A stretch of 64,000 bases of DNA. Origin: an uncultured Bacilli bacterium (GTDB lineage Bacteria; Bacillota_I; Bacilli_A; RF39; UBA660). Shown in pieces: positions 2,005 through 52,639 of the stretch. The notes beneath the pieces are model-generated. The model was not told the origin of the DNA and did not search any database. It saw nothing but the letters and a program-made list of their open reading frames with translations. How positions within the stretch are numbered: the stretch's first letter is position 1; every line of letters begins with the position of its first letter. A program made the position numbers and the translations under genes. The DNA lies in NCBI GenBank assembly GCA_947625085.1, contig CANQMV010000001.1, positions 3,722 to 67,721 on the forward strand, read 5' to 3'.

Positions 2005-3960
2005 ATGTTTGAATTAGTATCTAAATATAAACCAAGTGGTGACCAGCCAAATGCAATTGAAGAATTAACAAATGGAATAAAGAATGGTGTTAAACATCAA
2101 GTTTTACTTGGAGCAACTGGTACTGGAAAAACGTTTACGATTGCAAATGTTATTAAAAATGTTAATAAACAAACACTTGTTCTTGCTCATAATAAAACTT
2201 TAGCAGGACAACTTTATAGTGAACTTAAAGAGTTATTTCCAAATAACCGAGTAGAATATTTTGTCTCTTACTACGATTATTATCAACCAGAAGCCTATGT
2301 TCCATCAAGTGATACCTATATTGAAAAAGATGCCTCAATAAACGATGAAATTGATGAATTAAGACATTCAGCTACCAGTGCTTTACTATCAAGAGATGAT
2401 GTTATTGTTGTTGCTAGTGTTTCTTGTATTTATGGAATTGGTGAAGTTGAAGAATATCGAAATAAAACCTTAACATTAAAAGTTTCAGAAACCTGTGACC
2501 GTAATCAAGTAATGTTAAAACTTGTTGATATGTTGTATGAACGAAATGAATTAGATTTCAAAAGAGGAACCTTTAGAGTTAGAGGAGATACTTTAGAAAT
2601 TATTCCTTCAAATGAACATGTTCATGCACTTAGAATAGAATTTTTTGGCGATGAAATTGAGCGAATTAGTGAAATTGATGCTTTAACTGGAGCCATTATT
2701 ACTAATAAAAAAAGTGTTACAATATTTCCAGCTAGCCACTTTGTAACTAACGAAGAAACTTTAAAAATTGCAGTTGATAACATCAAAGAAGAATTAAAAG
2801 AAAGAATAGAATACTTTAATCAAAATAATAAACCTTTAGAGGCCGAAAGAATTAGAGAGCGGACAAACTATGATATGGAAATGTTACTTGAAACGGGTTT
2901 TTGTCATGGAATTGAAAATTATTCAAGACATTTAGCGTTAAAAAAGGCCGGTGAAACGCCAACCTGTTTACTTGATTTTTTTAATAAAGATTTTTTATTA
3001 GTAATTGATGAAAGTCATGTTACTGTTCCTCAAATAAGAGGAATGTATAATGGAGATAGAGCTCGAAAGTTAAATTTGGTTGATTACGGATTTAGACTTC
3101 CAAGTGCCCTTGATAATCGACCATTAAAATTTAATGAATTTGAAAACAAAGTTAATCAAGTAATTTATGTATCTGCAACTCCCGGCGACTATGAACTTGC
3201 GCTTACTAATAATAAATTTATAGAACAAATTATAAGACCAACTGGACTTTTAGACCCAACGATTGAAATTCGAAAAACCGTTGGCCAAATTGATAATTTA
3301 GTTGGGGAAATTAATGAAAGAATCAATCAAAATGAACGAGTATTAGTTACAACATTAACTATTCGAATGGCTGAAGAATTAACTAATTATTTAAAACAAT
3401 TAGATATAAAAGTTGCTTATTTACATTCAGAAATTAAAACTCTTGAAAGAATGAAAATTATTCGTGATTTACGACTTGGTACTTATGATGTTTTAGTTGG
3501 AATTAATCTTCTTCGAGAAGGACTTGATATCCCAGAAGTTAGTTTAATTGCTATTCTTGACGCTGATAAAGAGGGCTTTTTAAGAAGTGAGCGAAGTTTA
3601 ATTCAAACGATTGGTCGGTGTGCAAGAAATGCAAATGGACATGTTATTTTATATGCTGATAAAATGACTGATAGTATGGAATATGCAATTAAAGAAACTA
3701 AAAGACGTCGAGAAATTCAAATTAAATATAATGAACTTCACAATATTACTCCTAAAACAATTATCAAAGAAATTAGAGATTTAATTTCTAATATTGATGA
3801 GGAAAGCAAAACTAAAAAGACGACGAAAATGACTAAACAAGAAAAAATTAAGACTATGCAACTACTTGAAGATGAAATGCGAGAAGCTGCTCATAATCTT
3901 GATTTTGAAAGAGCAATGGAATTAAGAGATATTTTATTTGAAATGAAAGCGGAAGATTAA
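2005..3960 (+). CDS. uvrB: excinuclease ABC subunit B
   Basis: Walker [10 protein letters not shown], a helicase C-terminal region, and a C-terminal UvrB/UvrC interaction motif (FERAMELRD). RBS AAGGAGGT at 1993-2000 before ATG 2005. Confidence 0.95.
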
Positions 3961-3961
3961 A

Positions 3962-4804
3962 ATGCGATTTTCTAAAATTTATGTTGAAATAACTAATAAA
4001 TGTAATTTAAATTGTTCGTTTTGTTCAAATGATAATCGTATACTTGAAGAAATGTCTACCTGCTCATTTGAAATAGTTTTAAAAAAAATAAAAAAGTATA
4101 CAAAATCAATTTATTTACATGTTAAAGGTGAACCTCTTCTTCATTCAAAACTTGATGAAATTTTAAATTTATGTTTTTTAAATAATATGAAAGTTAAAAT
4201 AACCACTAATGGAACGTTACTTGCTAATAAATATGCTATTTTATTAAAGTATGATAATATTAAACAAATAAATATATCTCTTCATTCTGAAAATAAAATG
4301 CCTGATTATTTTGAAAAAGTTTTTAAAGTATCTGAAATATTAAGTAAAAAGATTCCAATAGTTTATCGAATTTGGTTACTTGATAATTATCATTTAGATA
4401 AGTTATCCACTATAATTGTGGAAAAAATTATATCTTATTATCATTTAAACGATGATTTTAAAACGCAAGTTCTAAATTTAAAAAATATAAAAATTAAAGA
4501 TAATCTTTATCTTGATAAGGATAATGAATTTATTTGGCCAGATGAAGAAAAAGAAACGACCAAAAACATAGGAACTTGTCTTGGAACTAGAAGTCATATT
4601 GCAATTTTAGTAAATGGTGATGTTGTTCCTTGTTGTTTAGATAGTAAGGCTCATTTAAAATTAGGAAATATTTTTAAAGATGATTTAGAAACTATTTTAA
4701 ATACAAAATTATTTAAAGAATTAAATATGGGTTTTAGAAATAATAAATTAATAGCTCCATTATGTAAAAATTGTAATTATCGAAGTCAAAAATTTAGAAG
4801 GTAA
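3962..4804 (+). CDS. radical SAM protein with a C-terminal SPASM/twitch-like Cys cluster
   Basis: CNLNCSFC (CxxxCxxC) near the N-terminus. C-terminal CC...C-x2-C cysteines (VPCCLD, CKNCNY). The ATG lies 1 nt after the uvrB stop, implying translational coupling. Confidence 0.8.
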   Translation: MRFSKIYVEITNKCNLNCSFCSNDNRILEEMSTCSFEIVLKKIKKYTKSIYLHVKGEPLLHSKLDEILNLCFLNNMKVKITTNGTLLANKYAILLKYDNIKQINISLHSENKMPDYFEKVFKVSEILSKKIPIVYRIWLLDNYHLDKLSTIIVEKIISYYHLNDDFKTQVLNLKNIKIKDNLYLDKDNEFIWPDEEKETTKNIGTCLGTRSHIAILVNGDVVPCCLDSKAHLKLGNIFKDDLETILNTKLFKELNMGFRNNKLIAPLCKNCNYRSQKFRR

Positions 4805-6039: not shown

Positions 6040-6969
6040 ATGAAAAAGGAGTTTAAGACCTTAAATGAGCAAGTTGAGATACTAAGAAATAAAGGATTAA
6101 TTATTAATGATGAAGAGTATGCTAAGACAGTTTTATTTAGAGAAAATTATTTCTTTTTAAATGGGTATCGTTACTTATTTATGCGTAGTAGTGTTGATAA
6201 AAGATATATAGAAGGATGTACTTTTGAAGAATTATATAGTTTATTTTTATTTGACCGAGAATTTAGAAATATTATTTTTAAAAATATTTTAATTATTGAA
6301 AATAATGTAAAATCGGTTATTAGTTACCAATTATCTCTTAAATATGGATATCGAGAAAAAGATTATTTAACCCCTAAAAATTTTACAACTAATAAAGAAA
6401 AAATTAAACAAGTTAATGATATCTTAAAAAAAATGAAAAGACAAATTAATATTAATGCTACTCAGCACTCGGCAACTATGCATTATGTTAATAATTATGG
6501 TTATATTCCCTTATGGGTTTTAGTTAAAGTTTTGTCTTTTGGAATTGTTGGAGAACTTTATTCTATTTTAAAAAAAGAAGACCAAATGGGAATAGCTGAA
6601 CTTTATAATGTCGATGTTGATGTATTAATAAATTATTTAACGATTTTATCTAATTATCGTAATTTATGTGCACATGAAGATATTGTTTATGAAAATAAAA
6701 CCCAAAGAAAGATTGCTGATAATAAATATCATAAGTTGCTTAATATTCCAATAATGGATGATGAATATATTTATGGAAAAGATGATTTATTTGCTTTAAT
6801 TATCATTATGAAACAAATGTTATCTAAAGAGGAATTTGCAAATTTGATAGAAGAAATTAGACATGTTTTAGCAAATTTAGAACTTAATTTACATACGATA
6901 AAAATAGATAAAGTATTAGATAGAATGGGATTTCCTAAAAATTATTATGAAATAAAAAATTTAGATTGA
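6040..6969 (+). CDS. Abi_2 (AbiD/AbiF-like) abortive-infection family protein
   Basis: Shares the N-terminal and central conserved blocks of the Abi_2 family (LNEQVEILRNKGLII, FFLNGYRYLF, LWVLVKVLSFG, YRNLCAHED). RBS AAAGGTAGGAGAG before ATG 6040. Confidence 0.75.
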   Translation: MKKEFKTLNEQVEILRNKGLIINDEEYAKTVLFRENYFFLNGYRYLFMRSSVDKRYIEGCTFEELYSLFLFDREFRNIIFKNILIIENNVKSVISYQLSLKYGYREKDYLTPKNFTTNKEKIKQVNDILKKMKRQININATQHSATMHYVNNYGYIPLWVLVKVLSFGIVGELYSILKKEDQMGIAELYNVDVDVLINYLTILSNYRNLCAHEDIVYENKTQRKIADNKYHKLLNIPIMDDEYIYGKDDLFALIIIMKQMLSKEEFANLIEEIRHVLANLELNLHTIKIDKVLDRMGFPKNYYEIKNLD

Positions 6970-8182: not shown

Positions 8183-8821
8183 TTATTTTTCATTTGGAAT
8201 AAGTAAGATTTGTCCAACCATTATATCATCGGTTAATAAGTTATTTATTTTTTTAAGTTCAGCAAGTTCAATCTTATAATAATCAGCAATCTCTTTTAAA
8301 GTATCATTATCTTTAACAACATAAGGTCGATAGTTACTAGTTTCAGGAATAATTAAACTTTCGCCAATTTTTAACATATTATTATCTAAATTATTTACTT
8401 CTTTTAATTTCTCAACACTAATATTATAACGTTTGGCAATATTATATAAAGTATCACCTGGTTTTACAATATAAGTAATATCATTATTAGAAGTTTTAAC
8501 AGGAATTAATAATTGTTCACCAATTTTTAAAAGAGTTGTTCCTTGTTCATTAAAATTAACTAATTCTTCTAAAGAAAGTTCATATCTTTTAGCAATATTA
8601 TATAAACTATCTCCCGGTTTAATTGTATAAATTATATAATCACTTGGAGGAGATTGTTCTACTTTTTTATATGGTATTTTAAGTTCCTGACCGATTTTTA
8701 AAATATTGCTTTCTAAATTATTTAATATTTTTAAAATACCAACAGTTGTATTATATTTATCAGCAATATCATATAAGTTGTCTCCTTCTTTAACAATATA
8801 AATTTCTTCTTCCATGTTCAC
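8183..8821 (-). CDS. protein with four LysM repeats
   Basis: Four repeats of the YxVKxGDxLxxIAxxY...L..N motif. No signal peptide or catalytic domain is evident. Confidence 0.85.
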   Translation of the reverse strand: MNMEEEIYIVKEGDNLYDIADKYNTTVGILKILNNLESNILKIGQELKIPYKKVEQSPPSDYIIYTIKPGDSLYNIAKRYELSLEELVNFNEQGTTLLKIGEQLLIPVKTSNNDITYIVKPGDTLYNIAKRYNISVEKLKEVNNLDNNMLKIGESLIIPETSNYRPYVVKDNDTLKEIADYYKIELAELKKINNLLTDDIMVGQILLIPNEK

Positions 8822-9940: not shown

Positions 9941-10296
9941 AATAGGTCCCCCTTTAAAAACGTTAGTATTATACTATAAAAAATTAAAAAAATCAAGAAA
10001 TATTTAACATATCGGTTTAATTACGTTTTAATTTTATGATTTTTTATTCGCATTTTTCGAATTTAGTATCTATCTGGTGCGAGTGACGTAGTTATCTACA
10101 ACTTTTTATAAACATAACTGATTTAAGTATCAATAAAAAAAATTACTTATTAGTTTTTTTTAAACATTTATATAATAAAAAAAGCAAGTTAGACGCATCC
10201 GACTTGCTCAGATGGAATCCGAATAATTAATCCCCTAGGTATTTTGACAAACATATCAAAATAACCTAAGGGATTATCCTTTTATATCAATATTCG

Positions 10297-18529: not shown

Positions 18530-18558
18530 TTGACAAAAAGATTAAAGTGTGTTATAAT
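18530..18558 (+). promoter_or_regulatory. consensus sigma-A promoter: TTGACA, 17-nt spacer, TATAAT
   Basis: TTGACA at 18530-18535, TATAAT at 18553-18558. The RBS AAAGGGGGA and ATG 18590 follow. Confidence 0.55.
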
Positions 18559-18589
18559 TATCCCGCAACTTAAAAAGGGGGATATAATT

Positions 18590-21151
18590 ATGAATATTAG
18601 GTTGAATAGTAAAAAAAAGGTGATAAATAATAACATGCTTGGAGAAAACATATACTCTCCAGAAAGTAATGAAGTTACAATTTTAGCTATAAAACGTTTA
18701 TTTTTAAAACATAATCTAGAAATGCCTGCAACTTTAAATTATTTTTTTATCGATTTACCAAGTAATTTTATTGAAACGTTATTTTATATGACAGATAAAG
18801 ATTTCAATAAATATATTAAATTTCTTGAAATTTTATTTAAAAGACATCCTGAGGTGATAAAAAATTATGATAGAATTATCGAGATTAGTAAAATATTAAT
18901 TAATAATTTAAAATCAGATAATTTTAAAATCTTAAAAAATATATTAACTGAAACGGATATTATTAACAATCTAGATATAGTTGAATTTGTTAATGCTTTC
19001 TTTAGAATTAATGATAAAACTAAATTAAAAGCTATTGAAAAAATAATATTATCATGGAAATCATTAGTTTTAAAACTTAATATAGTCAGAGTTATAGGTT
19101 TAGTTAATGCTGTAACTAATAAAAATCAACTTGAAAATTTAACTCAAATTCTTTCTGACTACGAAATATTATCATCAAAAAGAGCTGAAACTTTTGTTGA
19201 GTATATTATGAGAAATCCTAAAAATAAAAATTTAGGAGTTTATATTGAAGCACTTAAAATTAAAAATTTAAGACAATCTCCAGATTGTATGCAATTACTT
19301 GAACGTTATGTTTTAAATGAAAATAAAAATGTACCAAGATTATTAGTAAAATTTACACCTCATGGCTATAATACTGAAGTAAGATTTGATGAAATATTAT
19401 TTATTTTAGAAAATAAAACTATGTTAAATTCTATTTATTTAAAAGAAGTATTAGATTTTGTTAAAACTTGTCAGCCTTCTTATTATAAATATTTAAATGA
19501 ACTTATTAGTTATAAAGAGGAAATTTCAGAACCTGTATTTTTGGAATTTTTCCGAGCAATCAAAAATATTAAAAATAAATATAAATTTAAATATATTTTC
19601 CAATTTTTACATATAGTAAGTTATTACAAGATAAATAGTATTATTGATATTAGATTAGCATTAAACAATATCTTAAAAACTAAAGATGAATTTCAAACTA
19701 AAAATTATCTAAGTTTTTTAGAAGAAGCAACTAAAACAAATAAAAATCTAAGCTTATATAATCTTGGGGATATGGTTTTAACTAATGGTATATTAAATTC
19801 CAAAGCTGATAATCAAGCCGAAACCTTAGCCTATGTAAGTAGAATTATAAAAAATTCAAAATATTGTTCACAAATTAAAGATACAATTTTAAGAAGCACT
19901 CAAATAGTTAATAAATACATATTACTTTTCTTAAGAATACCAAATATTTTAGAACATCCTGATTTCTTAAAAATATTAGAACAATTTACTTTAGTTAAAA
20001 CCGAAACTCAATTAAAAATTCTTGTAAAATTAGCAAGAAATCAAGAGTTATTACATCAAAGTAATTGTTTAAAAGTATTTGAAAAAGTAAAAAGATGTAT
20101 TAATAAAGCTCAAGAAGATACAATTTTAGATGATTTATTAGATAGCCATACAACTTTTTCTAAAGTTTTATATACAAATTATTCTAATACATTAGGTCTT
20201 GAAAAAATACTTGATTATATTTTAAGTGTAACTTCTAAGACTCGTCTTAAATATATTGTAAAATCAGTTAAATTTCCAAAACTTTTTGAAACTTTAAAAA
20301 TTGATTACTTATTAAATTCCTATATTTATACAAAAGATTGTCTTAATTTAGATTTTAAATTACAAGAAATAACTACATTTGTTAGCAATAATATAAAATA
20401 TAAAGATTTTGATTTAGCTTCACCTTTATTTAAAAAAGTAATAACTGGAATTGACTTAGCTGAACATAAATATCAAGTTAGAACTATTATTGAAAATGCA
20501 AGATATTTAAAAAATGGCAAAGACAATATGATTATTAATGCTATTTTATACTCTAATAATCGTTTAATGTGTAAGAATTTAATATACTTTTTAATTAATT
20601 ATAATATTATGGATATGGATAATCAAAAATTTAAATCTATATTAATAAAATTTTCAAAAGTTCAAAATGAAGAACAATTAGCTTGCATGCTTGATTTATT
20701 TAGAGATGAAAATATTTTAAATTCAGAATATATTACTAATTATCTTGATTTTATATTAAGATGTAAAAATAAAGTTCAACTTGCAGCAATTTTAGAAATT
20801 GCTAAGGAATCTCCTAACCTTAATTCTTCATATTTAATTGAAATAATGGAAAAAATTGTCCTACAAACTAATCCAGCTTTAATAAAAGCATTAGTAGTTG
20901 TTATTCTTAAATCTAAAGAACTTGGAGAAATTCCTAGTGTTATTTTAACTGGGGCATTATATCCTAATTGCAAAAGAAAAGTTTTAAAAGATTACGTAAG
21001 TGATGAAGAAAAACTTAATGCTTTAAGATATGTAAGAAGAGAAATTGGTAAAGTAAACCAAACTAGTGCTCAAGAAATTAATCAAATAATAAAAACCGAA
21101 GTAAAAAGACCATTAGTATATACTAAAAAACCAGTTAATAATAAAAAATAA
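18590..21151 (+). CDS. large hypothetical alpha-helical repeat protein (854 aa)
   Basis: Long ORF with a strong RBS and its own promoter. No catalytic motifs. Leucine-rich helical repeats. Confidence 0.65.
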   Translation: MNIRLNSKKKVINNNMLGENIYSPESNEVTILAIKRLFLKHNLEMPATLNYFFIDLPSNFIETLFYMTDKDFNKYIKFLEILFKRHPEVIKNYDRIIEISKILINNLKSDNFKILKNILTETDIINNLDIVEFVNAFFRINDKTKLKAIEKIILSWKSLVLKLNIVRVIGLVNAVTNKNQLENLTQILSDYEILSSKRAETFVEYIMRNPKNKNLGVYIEALKIKNLRQSPDCMQLLERYVLNENKNVPRLLVKFTPHGYNTEVRFDEILFILENKTMLNSIYLKEVLDFVKTCQPSYYKYLNELISYKEEISEPVFLEFFRAIKNIKNKYKFKYIFQFLHIVSYYKINSIIDIRLALNNILKTKDEFQTKNYLSFLEEATKTNKNLSLYNLGDMVLTNGILNSKADNQAETLAYVSRIIKNSKYCSQIKDTILRSTQIVNKYILLFLRIPNILEHPDFLKILEQFTLVKTETQLKILVKLARNQELLHQSNCLKVFEKVKRCINKAQEDTILDDLLDSHTTFSKVLYTNYSNTLGLEKILDYILSVTSKTRLKYIVKSVKFPKLFETLKIDYLLNSYIYTKDCLNLDFKLQEITTFVSNNIKYKDFDLASPLFKKVITGIDLAEHKYQVRTIIENARYLKNGKDNMIINAILYSNNRLMCKNLIYFLINYNIMDMDNQKFKSILIKFSKVQNEEQLACMLDLFRDENILNSEYITNYLDFILRCKNKVQLAAILEIAKESPNLNSSYLIEIMEKIVLQTNPALIKALVVVILKSKELGEIPSVILTGALYPNCKRKVLKDYVSDEEKLNALRYVRREIGKVNQTSAQEINQIIKTEVKRPLVYTKKPVNNKK

Positions 21152-23977: not shown

Positions 23978-24067
23978 GTTATCTTACATAATATCTTTTT
24001 TATATTAAGAAATGTCTTAAATTCTATAAAAATAAAAATATATTATAATATGTGTGGTGATTTATCT

Positions 24068-25990
24068 ATGAATGATTTTACATTTTTAACTAATGAGCAA
24101 ATATTTGGAAAAAATTGTTTAGATATTTTTAAAAAATATGGGACAAAATGTGCAGTAACTGATTTTTCAATTTTATTAGGTGGTTTTATTTCTTCAGATT
24201 TTTATACAAAGGAAGGTAAGACTAGGAAGGATAGAAGTAGTTGGTGGTGGACAAAAACACCTGATTCTCATGGAGCAGTTTATATTGTTGATAGAGATGG
24301 GGAAAAGTTTTCTCCATCTGTTGAAATGCGAAATATTGGAGCAAGACCAGCTTTACCTTACTCTTCAATCAAAGCAATTTGTTCAAATGAATTTATAAAT
24401 GCAAAGGGGATTAAAGAAATTGAGTATGGTGAATATCCCCAGACAATTGTTGATGAAAATTATTCTCGTAATTTAGAAATGGCATATAAGAATGGAACAT
24501 TAAAAAAAACAGGTAAACAATATACAACTGATGATGAATTTAGTATATTAGCTGTTGATAATTTTAAACCAAGAACGCATATTGAGTATGAATATCGTGG
24601 AAATAAGTATATTCGTTTAATTGGCGGAAATGCCAATAAGTGTCTCCAAGTTTTGTCTGATGGGCAAATAGTTCATTTAGGAAATCCTTATTGGGTTCTA
24701 GTTGAACCAATAACTTGGTTAGTATCAGAAAACTCAAACATCGTTCTTTCTAAAAAAATATTATTTTCTGGAATCCAGTTTAAAAATAAAGGTTATTACG
24801 ATGGTGATTTTGAAAGAACAGATATAAAACAATTTTTAAATAATTACTTTTCAAAAGAAATAGTCCCTTCTAGAGTTTATCAACCAAATACTTTAGTAGA
24901 TAATAAAGAATCATTAAGAAAACAAAATCCTTATGATTTCAATTTTTCTTTCGTAAGTGAAGAAGATATAATAAAAGGAGCCATTGAAAGTAATATTGCC
25001 GTTTTTTTACATGGAAGACCAAGCGAAGGAAAATCAGCTAGAGTAAAACAATTAGACCCCGATTGTGGAATAATATATATGAGAAATGAAACTCCGGATA
25101 GTTTTAATGGAAAAAGTGTGTATAATGCTGCAACAGGAGATATGAAGGATATGCCACCAACGTGGTATTTAAAGGTAAAAGCGCGGTGTGAAGCAGAACC
25201 AAATAAAATTCATATTATCTTTTTTGATGAGCTTACAAATGCTCTTCCTTCAATTCAAGGTATGGCCTTTAATATAGTATTAGATGGAGAGGTAAATGGT
25301 AAATGGAAATTACCACCCAATGCTAGAATAGTAGCAGCAGGTAATGATTTAAATGATTCAATAGTAGCCTATCAAATGCCTGAACCATTATTTAATCGTT
25401 TCGCCCATGTTTATATTAATACAACAGTTGATAGTTGGTTAAAATGGGCAACTACTAAAAAAGAAAAAGCGGAAAGATTGGCTTATAAAGAAGAAGAACT
25501 AGAATTCAAAATTCATCCGGCAATTATTGCCTATATATCATATAAATCTTATATTGGACATGATGTTTTAAGAACTAAATATACGGGAGATAAACCTAAT
25601 GCTGACCCAAGAAAATGGGAGATGGCTAGTAAGGTACTCTATAAAACAAAACAACCAGAAATGTTAAGAGCATTGATTGGAGAAGCCTTAACTAAAGATT
25701 TTATAGCCTTTACCAAACAACAGGTAATAAGTGTAGAAGATGTAATAAAGCATAATTATTCAGCTAGAGATTTAGAAATGAATGTATCTCAAAAATTTGC
25801 AACTGCTGTAGGGTTATCATCGGTTGATTATTTAAATTTTGAAGTAGTAAGGAATTTTATGAAGCAACTTGGAGCAGAACCAAGAGCAGCCTTTGAATCA
25901 ATCTGGGCTCATGGTGATGAGAGAAGATTAGAAAAAATAGCCGAGTTAAAAATAGCTGATAGTTTATCAGAAGGAGAATTTAGAAAATGA
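24068..25990 (+). CDS. AAA+ ATPase of the MoxR/AAA_5 type with an unrecognised ~300-aa Trp-rich N-terminal domain
   Basis: Walker A GRPSEGKS, Walker B IIFFDELTNA, sensor AAGN. The N-terminal region contains SSWWWTKTP...GAVYIVDRDG...IGARPALPY with no recognised motif. GGTGAT SD sits before ATG 24068. Confidence 0.7.
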   Translation: MNDFTFLTNEQIFGKNCLDIFKKYGTKCAVTDFSILLGGFISSDFYTKEGKTRKDRSSWWWTKTPDSHGAVYIVDRDGEKFSPSVEMRNIGARPALPYSSIKAICSNEFINAKGIKEIEYGEYPQTIVDENYSRNLEMAYKNGTLKKTGKQYTTDDEFSILAVDNFKPRTHIEYEYRGNKYIRLIGGNANKCLQVLSDGQIVHLGNPYWVLVEPITWLVSENSNIVLSKKILFSGIQFKNKGYYDGDFERTDIKQFLNNYFSKEIVPSRVYQPNTLVDNKESLRKQNPYDFNFSFVSEEDIIKGAIESNIAVFLHGRPSEGKSARVKQLDPDCGIIYMRNETPDSFNGKSVYNAATGDMKDMPPTWYLKVKARCEAEPNKIHIIFFDELTNALPSIQGMAFNIVLDGEVNGKWKLPPNARIVAAGNDLNDSIVAYQMPEPLFNRFAHVYINTTVDSWLKWATTKKEKAERLAYKEEELEFKIHPAIIAYISYKSYIGHDVLRTKYTGDKPNADPRKWEMASKVLYKTKQPEMLRALIGEALTKDFIAFTKQQVISVEDVIKHNYSARDLEMNVSQKFATAVGLSSVDYLNFEVVRNFMKQLGAEPRAAFESIWAHGDERRLEKIAELKIADSLSEGEFRK

Positions 25991-26388
25991 ATAAAGAAAG
26001 ATTAAATTTATTAAAAAGTTATCTTAAAGCTGAAATATCTCCCTTATTAATTCCTGATATGCCTTCTTTCTTTTTTAATAATTCAGTGGTTCTAAAAGCT
26101 AATCTTGAAAGAAAAGAGTTAAATGGTCATTATGAAAATACCGAATTTTGTCCTCCAAATTGGTATAAAGAAATATTAGAAAAAAGTAAAACCAATTATG
26201 TTGTTTTGGTAATTGATAAACTAAATGAAATTGCAGAGGAAGACCAAACGAAATTTATTGAAATACTTAAATATAAAAAGATTAGTACATTTGAATTACC
26301 TAAAAATTGTTTGATTATTGTAACTTGTTCTGATTTTAGTAAGAATAAAATAAATGAAGAAGTGTATTCATTATTAGCACAAATTTAA
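25987..26388 (+). CDS. small hypothetical protein coupled to the ATPase (ATGA overlap)
   Basis: 133 aa. Its start overlaps the upstream stop by 4 nt. Confidence 0.55.
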   Translation: MNKERLNLLKSYLKAEISPLLIPDMPSFFFNNSVVLKANLERKELNGHYENTEFCPPNWYKEILEKSKTNYVVLVIDKLNEIAEEDQTKFIEILKYKKISTFELPKNCLIIVTCSDFSKNKINEEVYSLLAQI

Positions 26389-26397
26389 GAGGAGTTT

Positions 26398-27606
26398 ATG
26401 AATATTGAAACTATAAAAAGAAGATTATTAGTTAAGTATCCTTTCTTTGGAAGTATAGTAGCAAATTCTAATTTTGTTTCAGAACCAACAATAAAAACAG
26501 CCGCAACAGATGGGGAAACTATTTATTATAATCCAAATTTTCTTGAGGCTGTAGACTTTGACCAAAAGATATTTATATTTGCGCATGAAATATGTCATAT
26601 AGCCTTTAATCATATTTTAAGATGTGAAGATAAGGATAAAAGAATATGGAATATAGCAACCGATTCAGTTATAAATGCTTTTTTAAAACAAGATGGACTT
26701 CCTATAGTTGAAGGGGGAATTGATATTAAAGAAGCAATTAATTATGATGCCGAAGAAATGTACGAAAAACTTTTAGAAAATGAAAAAGCTAATAAATATG
26801 ATAATAATCAAGTTTCTAAAAATCAAAACGAAAATTGTGATGTTGGACATGATACCCATTCTATGTGGAATAAAAAACTTGAAAGTGAAGAAACCAAAAA
26901 ATTTACCGGGTTAGGTGAAAAAGAAGTCTTTAAACAAAATAAGATAGAAAGAAAAAAACAATTAGAAGAATTAAGAAAAGAATTAGTTAGTCAATCCCAT
27001 GGCTATGGTAGTGATATTAGTAGTGCTCTTAGAAATATAACTGATATTGGAACGGCTAATCAACTTATTGATTGGCGAAGATTGTTGAAAGAGGCAATTA
27101 AATATGATGTTGATTGGTCATATCAAAATGCTGAAATAGAAGATGGTATCGTAAGAGCCCATTTAGAAAGTATGCCAAGACCTGATACAGAAATTCTTTT
27201 AGATACAAGTGGTTCTATAGACGAAACCTTGCTTCGCAATTTTTTAAGAGAATGTAAAAATATATTACCAATTTCGAAAGTTAAGGTTGGGTGTTTTGAT
27301 ACCAAATTTTATGGTTTTACAGAAATAAATGATGTATCCGATATTGATAAATTAGTATTTCCTGGTGGTGGAGGAACAAACTTTGAGGTTCTGGTTAATG
27401 CATTTACAAAAAGAGTTGAAAATAAGATAATTTTTACAGATGGCGATGCATTGATGCCAAAAAGTCCAATAAATGCCATTTGGATAGTTTTTGGGGGCAG
27501 AAAGATTAAGCCAGTAGGAGGGAAAGTTATATATATAGATAATAACCAACTAAAAAAGTTAGATAATTATGAAATAACTAGTGAAGTAAGAGGAAAAACT
27601 AGATAA
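26398..27606 (+). CDS. DUF2201-type protein: N-terminal putative HExxH metallopeptidase domain plus C-terminal vWA-like domain (MIDAS DTSGS)
   Basis: AHEICHIAFNH (HExxH). LLDTSGSID (DxSxS MIDAS). RBS AAGAGGAG. Follows the ATPase in one operon. Confidence 0.7.
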   Translation: MNIETIKRRLLVKYPFFGSIVANSNFVSEPTIKTAATDGETIYYNPNFLEAVDFDQKIFIFAHEICHIAFNHILRCEDKDKRIWNIATDSVINAFLKQDGLPIVEGGIDIKEAINYDAEEMYEKLLENEKANKYDNNQVSKNQNENCDVGHDTHSMWNKKLESEETKKFTGLGEKEVFKQNKIERKKQLEELRKELVSQSHGYGSDISSALRNITDIGTANQLIDWRRLLKEAIKYDVDWSYQNAEIEDGIVRAHLESMPRPDTEILLDTSGSIDETLLRNFLRECKNILPISKVKVGCFDTKFYGFTEINDVSDIDKLVFPGGGGTNFEVLVNAFTKRVENKIIFTDGDALMPKSPINAIWIVFGGRKIKPVGGKVIYIDNNQLKKLDNYEITSEVRGKTR

Positions 27607-27611
27607 TTAAG

Positions 27612-27640
27612 ATTTAGAATAAAAAGTTCTAAATTTTTTT
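27612..27640 (+). terminator. rho-independent terminator closing the three-gene operon
   Basis: ATTTAGAA-taaaaag-TTCTAAAT followed by TTTTTTT. Confidence 0.6.
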
Positions 27641-27766
27641 ATAGAATAAGAAAACACCTTTCAAAATTCATATAAGAAACTCTAGTTGATAAATTCATAT
27701 TTTATTATCATAACTTTATAGACTTTTTATTAAAAAATTGATAAAATGCTATTAATGGGAGGCTAT

Positions 27767-28471
27767 ATGTATGATATTAGTTTAGATAATTTTCAAGGCC
27801 CAATGGATTTACTTTTACATTTAATTAAACAAAAGAAAATGAATATTTTAGATATTAAACTAGAAATTATTATTGATGAATATTTAAATTATATAAAACA
27901 CTTAGATGAGATGAATTTAAATATTGCCAGTAGTTATTTAGTTATGGCTTCTGAATTAATCGAGATAAAATCAAGAATGTTACTTCCAAGTTCAAATGAG
28001 GATTCTGAAGTAGAAGACTTAAAAGAAAATTTAGTTAATCGCTTAATAGAATATGAAAAATATAAAAATATTGTTCCTGTTTTTCAAGAATTAGAAACCG
28101 AAAGAAATAATTACAAAACCAAAAGTCCTAGTAATATTTTAGAATATAAAAAAGATGAAAAAATAACTAGTGAATTAAATGTTGATGATTTATTAACAGC
28201 TTATAAAAAGTTTTTAGAAAGATGTGAAGACGAAAAACCAATTAAAACTAAGATTACCAAGAAAGAAATTTCCATTGAAGGTGAAATGAAAAGAATTAAA
28301 GCCAAATTTCAAAATCAGAAAAAAATTAATTTTGTTGATTTATTTTTAAATAATGAAAAGAAATATGTAATTGCAACTTTTTTAGCTATTTTAGAAATGT
28401 CTTTTAAAAAAGAGATAAAAATTATTCAAGAAAATAATTTTGAAAATATTGTCTGTGAGGTAATAGAATGA
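27767..28471 (+). CDS. scpA: segregation and condensation protein A
   Basis: MYDISLDNFQGPMDLLLHLI kleisin N-terminus. RBS GGGAGG. Confidence 0.9.
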   Translation: MYDISLDNFQGPMDLLLHLIKQKKMNILDIKLEIIIDEYLNYIKHLDEMNLNIASSYLVMASELIEIKSRMLLPSSNEDSEVEDLKENLVNRLIEYEKYKNIVPVFQELETERNNYKTKSPSNILEYKKDEKITSELNVDDLLTAYKKFLERCEDEKPIKTKITKKEISIEGEMKRIKAKFQNQKKINFVDLFLNNEKKYVIATFLAILEMSFKKEIKIIQENNFENIVCEVIE

Positions 28472-45627: not shown

Positions 45628-45638
45628 TTTTTCTTATT

Positions 45639-45713
45639 GTCCTCATAGTATAAAGGATAGTACGGATTCCTCCTAAGAATTAAATGTAGGTTCGATTCCT
45701 ACTGGGGACGCCA
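45639..45713 (+). tRNA. tRNA-Arg (anticodon CCU)
   Basis: GTCCTCATAGTATAAAGGATAGTACGGATTCCTCCTAAGAATTAAATGTAGGTTCGATTCCTACTGGGGACGCCA. Anticodon loop CTCCTAA. Confidence 0.9.
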
Positions 45714-45965
45714 TATTGTATATAAAGAGCTGAAAATCAGTTCTTTTTTTATTAAAAATATTAGTTTAAATTAAAAAGGTGAAATTTGTTCACCTTTAAA
45801 CCTTTCTAAAACCTCGTTTTATAAGCTTTTTAAAAAAAACTTCTTTTTCTTAAAAAATAAAAAAAAGAGTATAGATTATTATTAGAGGTTAAGAATAACC
45901 TCATATTTCATGAAAAGGAGGTTTGATATCATGATATTAGAAGAAAAATGGAAAGGAGGATTTAG

Positions 45966-52307: not shown

Positions 52308-52417
52308 TTTATAAAATTGAATAGACCATGGTCTATTTTTTTGTTGTAATAATATTAAAATTTGATTGACTTATAATAAATATTAAATATAATATAATTT
52401 GTAGTCTGTTAATCAAT

Positions 52418-52492
52418 GTTCTCATCGTATAATGGATAGTACAAATCCCTCCGAAGGATTAAATGTAGGTTCGATTCCTACTGAGAACACCA
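52418..52492 (+). tRNA. tRNA-Arg (anticodon CCG)
   Basis: GTTCTCATCGTATAATGGATAGTACAAATCCCTCCGAAGGATTAAATGTAGGTTCGATTCCTACTGAGAACACCA. Anticodon loop CTCCGAA. Confidence 0.9.
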
Positions 52493-52639
52493 AATAAAAT
52501 AAAAATAAAATTATAAAAATAAAATTCTTGAATTGTTAATTAAAAAGGCAAGGTTACTTTTAAAAATTCGTGATGTTAATCATTAGTTAAAATGATACCA
52601 TTTTTAAAAATTCGTGATTGACATTAAAATACTCGTATG

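Follow-up and report, generated by a model that had tools for sequence, protein, structure and literature searches.

The stretch analysed here (the window) is a 64-kb piece of contig CANQMV010000001.1 from an uncultured Bacilli bacterium, and our subject is a compact group of three genes within it, hereafter the trio, that an earlier note on this DNA had put forward as a candidate defence or signalling system. All three open reading frames (ORFs) lie on the forward strand. ORF A (24068–25990; 640 aa) is made up of an N-terminal variable-domain module, a linker, an ATPase of the AAA_5/MoxR neighbourhood and a helical C-terminal domain; ORF B (25987–26388; 133 aa) is a P-loop-less, catalytically degenerate paralog of the AAA core of ORF A; and ORF C (26398–27606; 402 aa) joins a DUF2201_N putative zinc metallopeptidase domain to a DUF2201 vWA-like domain. 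An in-frame ATG at 24050, upstream of 24068, is an unlikely start for ORF A, since the homologs open with MNxFTFLT. The A/B junction is an ATGA overlap with GAAGGAGAA just before it, and B is separated from C by a gap of 9 nt (GAGGAGTTT), confirming that the reading frames are co-directional and tightly coupled. The three genes are translationally coupled and co-inherited and, on sequence grounds, all of them are genuine conserved genes. The genes murG, murB and divIB (FtsQ-type POTRA) lie upstream and scpA and scpB downstream, in agreement with the location between divIB and scpAB that had been proposed. No hydrophobic segment was found in ORFs A, B or C, and ORF A has neither a transmembrane segment nor a signal peptide; with all three proteins free of hydrophobic segments, the system is therefore predicted to be cytoplasmic. 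An AU-rich hairpin with a U-run (27609–27641, forward strand), located 3' of the ORF C stop, is the likely intrinsic terminator of the cassette. Its 12-bp stem (27609–27637) is followed by U7 and folds at −8.6 kcal/mol (z = −3.1; 1 of 200 shuffles folded equally well). The terminator had been claimed before, and its hairpin and U-run were recovered, but the element is not listed by a G+C-based consensus scan and is weak by consensus rules, leaving a role as the cassette terminator plausible.

The N-terminal module of ORF A (N-module; 24068–24880, forward strand, residues 1–271) is the candidate sensor of the trio. Its ~270 residues were modelled confidently as one compact domain (pLDDT, the predicted local distance difference test score, 91.5; pTM, the predicted template modelling score, 0.89). 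This region had been described as unrecognised, which does not hold in full: when scanned alone it scores 25.4 bits against the Pfam family DUF6273 (cut-off 23.5), while the full-length ORF A reaches 22.6 bits and stays under that cut-off. The match covers residues 51–96 and model positions 126–168 of 172, that is, the last third of the model, and it recurs at E ≤ 0.001 in 5 of 54 relatives. A structure search of the N-module against BFVD returned nothing significant. These scores link the N-module weakly, as a distant relative, to DUF6273, described as a C-type-lectin-like domain that bears the variable region (VR) of targets of diversity-generating retroelements (DGRs) in gut phages (PMC10743442; bioRxiv 10.1101/2024.10.15.618418); the fold match of the N-module to those DUF6273 targets is itself weak, and the C-type lectin fold was not confirmed. 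Among 150 representatives the N-module was found in the architectures N-C, N-N-C, N-C-C, N-C-N, N-N and N-only, and some ATPase modules of the ORF A type sit behind other N-termini, indicating that the N-module behaves as a mobile module and is not a housekeeping fold. The N-module family is used in several other architectures in these genomes. One member of alignment A3 also bears ankyrin repeats (Pfam Ank families), and another DUF6273-domain protein is encoded ~6 kb downstream of the trio at locus L180 (17408–17929; L numbers denote the loci compared). Among 116 close homologs, residues 67–90 are the most variable stretch of ORF A, with entropies of 2.5–2.7 bits compared to a mean of 0.57 bits for ORF A and 0.30 bits for the ATPase module, and this hypervariable stretch coincides with the VR of DGR-linked relatives.

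Several related loci carry a DGR next to the trio. In L088/L089, genes for bAvd and a reverse transcriptase (RT) lie directly upstream of the trio. At L088 an 84-nt template repeat (TR; 8605–8688) is located between avd and the RT gene, and its VR copy (10209–10292) corresponds to codons 70–98 of the ATPase gene. An independent IMG/VR viral contig (L091) shows the same Avd/TR/RT/VR arrangement, with the VR again beginning at codon 70; here 10 of 24 template adenines are changed between TR and VR compared to 1 of 50 other bases (p = 2e-5), and the VR is followed by a conserved GC-rich element, GGTGGGGCTCGCCCAG, which resembles an initiation of mutagenic homing (IMH) element and marks the VR 3' end. 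When metagenome contigs were scanned with the trio-linked RT as the query, an N-module protein followed in every case in which an RT at least 53% identical had downstream DNA. The order Avd-RT-A-B-C recurs in L094, L097, L100, L105 and L106, the last two with trios diverged to ~30% identity, and L099 shows RT-A-B-C with no Avd match found, so that DGR genes lie directly upstream of the trio in at least nine loci (L088, L089, L091, L094, L097, L099, L100, L105 and L106). When 14 TR/VR pairs are taken together, mutations affect 157 of 392 adenines of the template compared to 31 of 818 other bases, and in L105 alone the counts are 20 of 37 and 0 of 71 (p = 5e-12). This adenine-specific pattern identifies the N-module in the related loci as a genuine DGR target. 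Because of the DGR targeting and the entropy peak, the Trp-rich module (WWWTK...GARPALPY) is a hypervariable binding-type domain that is rewritten by a dedicated DGR lineage, and the sensor-like character given to the N-terminal fusion in the earlier note gains strong independent support. At L097 (8098–12992) there are two tandem N-module–ATPase genes with a B-like gene between them; each bears its own VR and both VRs match one TR; the locus has one DGR with two targets in a single system. At L100 (3529–6475) the RT gene is split by an insert of ~1.9 kb (residues 1–224 at 3529–4200, residues 222–340 at 6119–6475), which is possibly a mobile element or an intron.

The AAA+ module occupies the C-terminal 355 residues of ORF A, with its alpha/beta core at 24965–25417 (about residues 300–450). 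It carries Walker A (GRPSEGKS, 25013–25036, residues 316–323), Walker B (FFDE, 25220–25231, residues 385–388), sensor-1 (AAGN, 25334–25345, residues 423–426) and FNRF (25391–25402) motifs, all on the forward strand. The Walker A, Walker B and sensor motifs were thus found where they had been reported and are upheld by profile and structure tests, and both Walker motifs are retained in 116 of 116 close homologs. The ORF A family comprises 5,985 representatives at the 50% clustering level and includes full-length homologs at ~70% identity. The length of the linker between the N-module and the ATPase varies across the family, and in the homologs P0013 and P0068 it contains two to four tandem copies of a ~21-aa peptide (TSVEQTQNLEGKEPVRKQNPS). 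As for the AAA_5 label, ORF A matches PHROG 1297 ('ATPase') at 2e-41 and AAA_5 was matched in 14 of 18 relatives (E ≤ 1, best 5.6e-07), but the window protein itself has no Pfam AAA_5 match at E < 0.1. Weaker Pfam matches of the relatives are to Sigma54_activat, AAA_3 (6 of 18) and bpMoxR (2 of 18). The label agrees with the fold: the nearest solved folds to the C-terminal half are dynein, NorQ, CbbQ and midasin, and the AlphaFold model of the ATPase module (pLDDT 88) places one beta-hairpin after strand 2 and a second before the sensor-1 strand, corresponding to the helix-2-insert and pre-sensor-1 hairpins of the dynein/midasin/MoxR group. Sequence comparison of ORF A with solved structures found no direct match, and a profile search against the PDB gave weak matches to NtrC, McrB, CbbQ and RNF213, with CbbQ at E = 0.33, a measure of the very low sequence similarity between ORF A and the classical MoxR-vWA pairs. 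Overall, these results support, with a modest margin, the assignment of the C-terminal module as a divergent ATPase of the AAA_5/MoxR neighbourhood. In every trio looked at, the ATPase has a vWA/MIDAS (metal-ion-dependent adhesion site) partner two genes downstream, namely ORF C.

The 133-aa product of ORF B had previously been called a small protein; it is indeed a small protein within the trio, but not merely that. A profile built from 120 ORF B sequences aligned by hhalign with the profile of the ATPase module of ORF A at a probability of 98.2–98.8% (E = 5e-14), residues 7–133 of ORF B falling end-to-end on residues 300–448 of ORF A, and BLASTP of ORF B against ORF A gave the same region and register (E = 0.014). 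Relative to ORF A, the Walker A (P-loop) segment is deleted, Walker B has changed from DE to DK or EN, and ORF B has neither the sensor-1 Asn nor the FNRF Arg, while the helix-2-insert region is strongly conserved between the two (LNGHYEN..FCPPxWY and FNGKSVYN..MPPTWY). Taken together, the alignments demonstrate a paralog of the ORF A AAA core that is predicted to be catalytically dead. ORF B has no Pfam match beyond noise and no VMAP match, and its profile found no match in the PDB. Across 369 clusters its length is kept at 133 aa, and it is retained even in the divergent DGR-linked trios L105 and L106, ~30% identical to the window trio.

The description of the third protein as an HExxH and vWA (DUF2201-type) protein was borne out. 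Both Pfam domains score above their cut-offs on ORF C (DUF2201_N, PF13203, 2.6e-31, 109.7 bits, cut-off 23.2; DUF2201, PF09967, 7.2e-11, 42.7 bits, cut-off 26.4), and the two motifs are HEICH (HExxH; 26584–26598, residues 63–67) and DTSGS (MIDAS; 27202–27216, residues 269–273), both on the forward strand. Among homologs from 12 trio loci the MIDAS motif is invariant (12 of 12) and HExxH is present in 10. Against the PDB, ORF C gave only a non-significant match of the HExxH region to MJ1213 (E = 0.12). Its domains and motifs make ORF C a standard DUF2201-family protein, with a predicted zinc-peptidase-like HExxH domain and a vWA domain with an intact MIDAS. ORF C also matches PHROG 1314 at 5.6e-62 over its full length; that family is labelled 'HNH endonuclease', a label that looks wrong for at least part of it.

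The architecture of the three proteins bears on an explanation in which the trio would be a DGR-tunable cytoplasmic signalling or regulatory sensor for metabolites or for host- or gut-derived ligands, as proposed for cyanobacterial DGR targets. A variable ligand-binding domain fused to an NTPase transducer would suit such a sensor, and regulatory DGR targets reportedly have precedent in the literature. However, Pfam and NCBIfam gave the three proteins no DNA-binding, kinase or second-messenger domain, the output domain is a peptidase-vWA protein, and a patchy, cassette-like distribution (see below) better suits conflict systems, making this explanation very improbable.

We compared the insertion site in ScpA-anchored loci, taking one genome per species (n = 79) and placing the neighbouring genes by tblastn. 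In the seven closest genomes with upstream sequence (ScpA 66–77% identical) the order is murG-murB-divIB-scpA-scpB, with a short divIB-scpA spacer and the trio absent. In L007–L012 and L014, divIB is followed by a short spacer with a −10-like GATATAAT and then by ATGTATGAT of scpA. Since divIB lies directly beside scpA in the seven closest genomes, we regard the trio as an insertion into the divIB-scpA spacer; relative to these genomes the inserted segment extends from the divIB stop to the probable scpA start (23978–27766) and amounts to ~3.8 kb of trio and spacers. No trio was found near scpA in any of the 79 loci. The neighbourhood comparison, a test that had been set beforehand, therefore showed that the trio is neither syntenic nor strictly conserved (0 of 7 closest genomes and 0 of 79 ScpA loci). 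The insert has a modestly higher GC content than the window (29.6% compared to 24.8%), and its junctions in the window show no target-site duplication, repeat, integrase or transposase. The scpA ORF as mechanically called opens at 27746; the ATGTATGAT of the relatives (translated MYD...) points to the ATG at 27767, which is preceded by GGGAGG. At L008 (7900–8130), in a close relative, the 3' end of divIB, the spacer and the 5' start of scpA are duplicated in tandem over a short length, at the exact junction where the window carries the trio. The divIB-scpA site may be prone to recombination, or an insertion or excision event may have left the duplication as a scar.

Outside this site, trios with identical internal spacing were found in at least seven other contexts. 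The L001 and L090 trios lie beside TnpB, RhuM and HipA genes and an integrase (L090 is near the integrase), the L004 trio lies beside DDE transposases, and the L088 trio has its DGR upstream and genes for helix-turn-helix (HTH) regulators, a serine recombinase and RhuM downstream, while the trios of L085, L176, L178 and L180 are solitary cassettes among housekeeping genes. A ~311-aa ORF that follows ORF C in several loci was considered as a fourth cassette gene and rejected; it is not conserved from one context to the next, and the window does not have it. Overall, the trio is best explained as a horizontally acquired, self-contained accessory cassette.

This distribution also bears on whether the trio could serve one specific client as a chaperone or maturation system of the MoxR type, with the N-module acting in client recognition and with no role in conflict. 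In NorQ-NorD, CbbQ-CbbO and RavA-ViaA, an AAA ring acts by way of a vWA partner that bears a MIDAS. That NorQ and CbbQ, with their vWA/MIDAS partners, are among the closest solved folds, that Walker A and Walker B are strictly conserved and that many trio loci lie among housekeeping genes would all be expected of such a system. In contrast, the trio is missing at this site in the seven closest genomes and occupies differing positions elsewhere, no client gene conserved beside it was found (the ~311-aa downstream ORF is not conserved), and a recognition domain that is hypervariable and DGR-mutagenised is hard to square with a fixed housekeeping client. Unlike the trio, NorQ-NorD, CbbQ-CbbO and RavA-ViaA are housekeeping maturation or activase systems with fixed clients, and a variable N-terminal domain, a peptidase on the vWA partner and a dead AAA paralog are all missing from them. 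We therefore consider a chaperone role improbable.

We infer a defence or signalling role for the trio, and the form that we favour, at slightly better than even chance, is a cytoplasmic sensor-transducer-effector conflict system of the anti-invader or abortive-infection type. This conflict role, which we hold with the same slight leaning, builds on the DGR-tuned sensor, the dead paralog, the peptidase-vWA protein, the accessory distribution, the cytoplasmic location and published precedent (PMC7159879; PMC10907252). The mechanism is modelled by analogy with NorQ-NorD, CbbQ-CbbO and RavA-ViaA, and also with the ternary MoxR-vWA systems linked to DGRs. A cytoplasmic ligand, for example a phage or other mobile-element protein, would be bound by the N-module, and ligand binding would switch or gate the ATPase ring, in which ORF B may co-assemble, or which it may cap, as a non-hydrolysing regulatory subunit. 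By way of the MIDAS-containing vWA domain the ring would next engage ORF C and remodel it, releasing or activating its peptidase or freeing its vWA-mediated binding, and the peptidase could act on host or invader proteins.

A number of observations weigh against the conflict reading. PADLOC-DB 2.0 gave no match for A, B or C at E ≤ 0.1, NCBIfam gave no match for the trio proteins, and most of the sampled trio loci are solitary among housekeeping genes and do not lie in recognisable defence islands. In L004 (10340–11731) and L085 (12343–13872), 2 of the 12 ORF C homologs, the catalytic Glu of HExxH is replaced by Val (HVICH instead of HEICH, with the MIDAS intact in both), and proteolysis therefore cannot be a universal output; the peptidase domain may be non-catalytic in some lineages. 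The window's own copy is also without the retroelement. Its VR-equivalent segment (AVYIVDRDGEKFSPSVEMRNIGARPALPY; 24275–24361, forward strand, codons 70–98 of ORF A) is homologous to the DGR VR of the relatives, but within the 64 kb there is no TR/VR-type direct repeat, no short copy of the VR-equivalent DNA and no RT or Avd homolog, and the IMH-like element at the VR 3' end has been lost (ATTGGAGCAAGACCAG in the window compared to GGTGGGGCTCGCCCAG in the relatives).

The 5' boundary of the VR, CGCGCGCG, is lost in the window as well, where CGCGCGCGTCGT has become GGAGCAGTTTAT; the GC-rich VR flanks are still kept in the DGR-less trios L001 and L085. Since the VR segment has no cognate TR or DGR within the 64 kb and its GC-rich flanks are lost, the specificity of the sensor is probably frozen and not currently diversifying, and the window would thus probably carry a 'frozen' allele. 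The search for a DGR covered the 64-kb window; a DGR acting in trans from elsewhere in the genome is possible, although the loss of the VR flanks argues against one. All catalytic motifs of the window trio are intact.

A further difficulty for the conflict reading is that lytic N4-like phages carry an ATPase-DUF2201 dyad that has neither the N-module nor ORF B, and a role in host defence makes no sense there. In Pectobacterium phage Horatius, for example (genes 39 and 42; PHROGs 1297 and 1314), homology of the ATPase to the ATPase module of ORF A extends along almost the whole module (E = 1.5e-25 with the module profile), with a DUF2201_N + DUF2201 protein nearby, as in the trio, but the phage ATPase has no N-module and its identity is 25–28%. 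The small ORFs between the Horatius ATPase and DUF2201 genes, or beside the ATPase of phage PA5oct, were checked as B-like proteins and are not B-like, and a large neighbour in PA5oct (L175 6394–7890, annotated as a homing endonuclease) was ruled out as a DUF2201 protein, to which it is unrelated. Because the phage dyad is without the N-module and ORF B, we regard it as an older module of general use to which the sensor was added later.

The phage dyad could also mean that the trio is a module derived from a phage or mobile element that serves the element itself, in superinfection exclusion, host takeover or counter-defence, with the window copy as a domesticated or stranded remnant. PHROG families exist for both the ATPase module and the DUF2201 protein, N4-like lytic phages have the dyad and PA5oct-like jumbo phages the ATPase, one DGR-linked trio is on an IMG/VR viral contig, the L088 trio is followed by HTH regulator, serine recombinase and RhuM genes and L090 lies near an integrase, and DUF6273 is typical of DGR-diversified phage receptor-binding proteins. 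However, no phage structural, integrase or recombinase genes lie beside the window trio, whose flanks are murG-murB-divIB and scpA-scpB, and most trio contexts are chromosomal housekeeping neighbourhoods. The matches in known phages are only 25–28% identical and lack the N-module and ORF B, and the trio proteins are cytoplasmic, unlike receptor-binding proteins. On balance we consider an element-serving module unlikely, and retain the cytoplasmic conflict system as our preferred reading.

A stronger form of the conflict reading is possible, though we put it forward tentatively and consider it doubtful: the trio would be a retroelement-programmable intracellular immune receptor, widespread in gut Bacilli, in which a cytoplasmic hypervariable binding domain, rewritten by a DGR clade of its own, is fused directly to an AAA+ motor that, once an invader protein is bound, uses the dead paralog and vWA-metallopeptidase to execute defence, while DGR-less copies would be horizontally spread alleles of fixed specificity. 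If true, unicellular bacteria with reduced genomes would possess a sensing arm that is anticipatory and antibody-like.

The idea of joining a DGR-diversified sensor to MoxR, vWA and peptidase components has already been published, in the DGR-associated MoxR-vWA (VMAP) ternary conflict systems (Kaur et al. 2020, PMC7159879; Doré et al. 2024, PMC10907252), which have been proposed as antigen-sensing immune systems and are known mainly from multicellular cyanobacteria, actinobacteria and purple sulfur bacteria. Like the trio, these have three core genes and bring together a MoxR-type AAA+ ATPase, a vWA/MIDAS protein, a peptidase and a DGR-diversified binding domain, with a proposed logic that runs from sensor through ATPase transducer to effector. 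The two differ in arrangement. In the trio the variable domain is the N-terminus of the ATPase, with the VR close to the gene's 5' end, whereas in the VMAP systems it forms the vWA protein's C-terminus; the trio has its peptidase, a DUF2201_N zincin, on the vWA protein, and the VMAP systems have theirs, a trypsin or caspase, on a VMAP protein; and the third gene encodes a degenerate AAA paralog instead of VMAP. The hosts of the trio are small low-GC gut Bacilli, in contrast to the multicellular cyanobacteria, actinobacteria and Chromatiales that carry the VMAP systems, and the VMAP systems carry a DGR while the window copy of the trio does not.

Two other groups of DGR targets resemble the N-module in part. 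Fusions of a C-type lectin domain to an AAA ATPase (CLec-AAA) are DGR targets of candidate phyla radiation (CPR) bacteria with a C-terminal variable region (Paul et al. 2017, as cited in PMC10907252). They share with ORF A a DGR-diversified binding domain and an AAA ATPase in a single polypeptide, but the citing description gives them no DUF2201 or degenerate AAA partner, and the RT clade and host phyla differ. The DUF6273 DGR targets of gut phages (tentaclins, Mtd-like; PMC10743442; bioRxiv 10.1101/2024.10.15.618418) resemble the N-module in the VR region (WW..., ...G.RP) and in being targeted by DGRs; however, they are virion receptor-binding proteins with Ig-like domains whereas ORF A is a cytoplasmic ATPase fusion, and the similarity is confined to the C-terminal third of the DUF6273 model, with a weak fold match. 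In the open-access full-text literature, searches on DUF2201 and DUF6273, and on DGR together with MoxR or AAA, returned no description of the trio architecture. What is new compared to the published systems is the variable domain on the N-terminus of the ATPase, the DUF2201-type vWA protein with a zincin, the degenerate AAA protein as the third gene and the gut Bacilli as hosts. The trio is an attractive and tractable experimental model because the family is common (5,985 representatives), compact (three genes in ~3.6 kb) and cytoplasmic, with variants with and without a DGR. It would allow one to ask what is recognised by an intracellular sensor that a DGR diversifies, how ligand binding is coupled by an AAA+ ring to a vWA-peptidase and what a P-loop-less AAA paralog does in the ring, and it offers a functional lead for DUF2201, for DUF6273 and for the ATPase-DUF2201 dyad of N4-like phages.

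Elsewhere in the window, an 873-aa ORF (18530–21151, forward strand) with no Pfam match and a GC content of 21% lies just upstream of murG. Weak homologs (22–26% identity) are found at the same position upstream of murG in L008, L009 and L012 and at a different position in L010, and the ORF appears to encode a lineage-specific conserved protein. Two sets of repeats unrelated to the trio were also observed. Positions 8214–8801 contain four tandem copies of ~111 nt at a spacing of 150–171 nt, and two tRNA-gene-like copies of 89 nt, 82% identical to each other, are located at 45638–45726 and 52417–52505.

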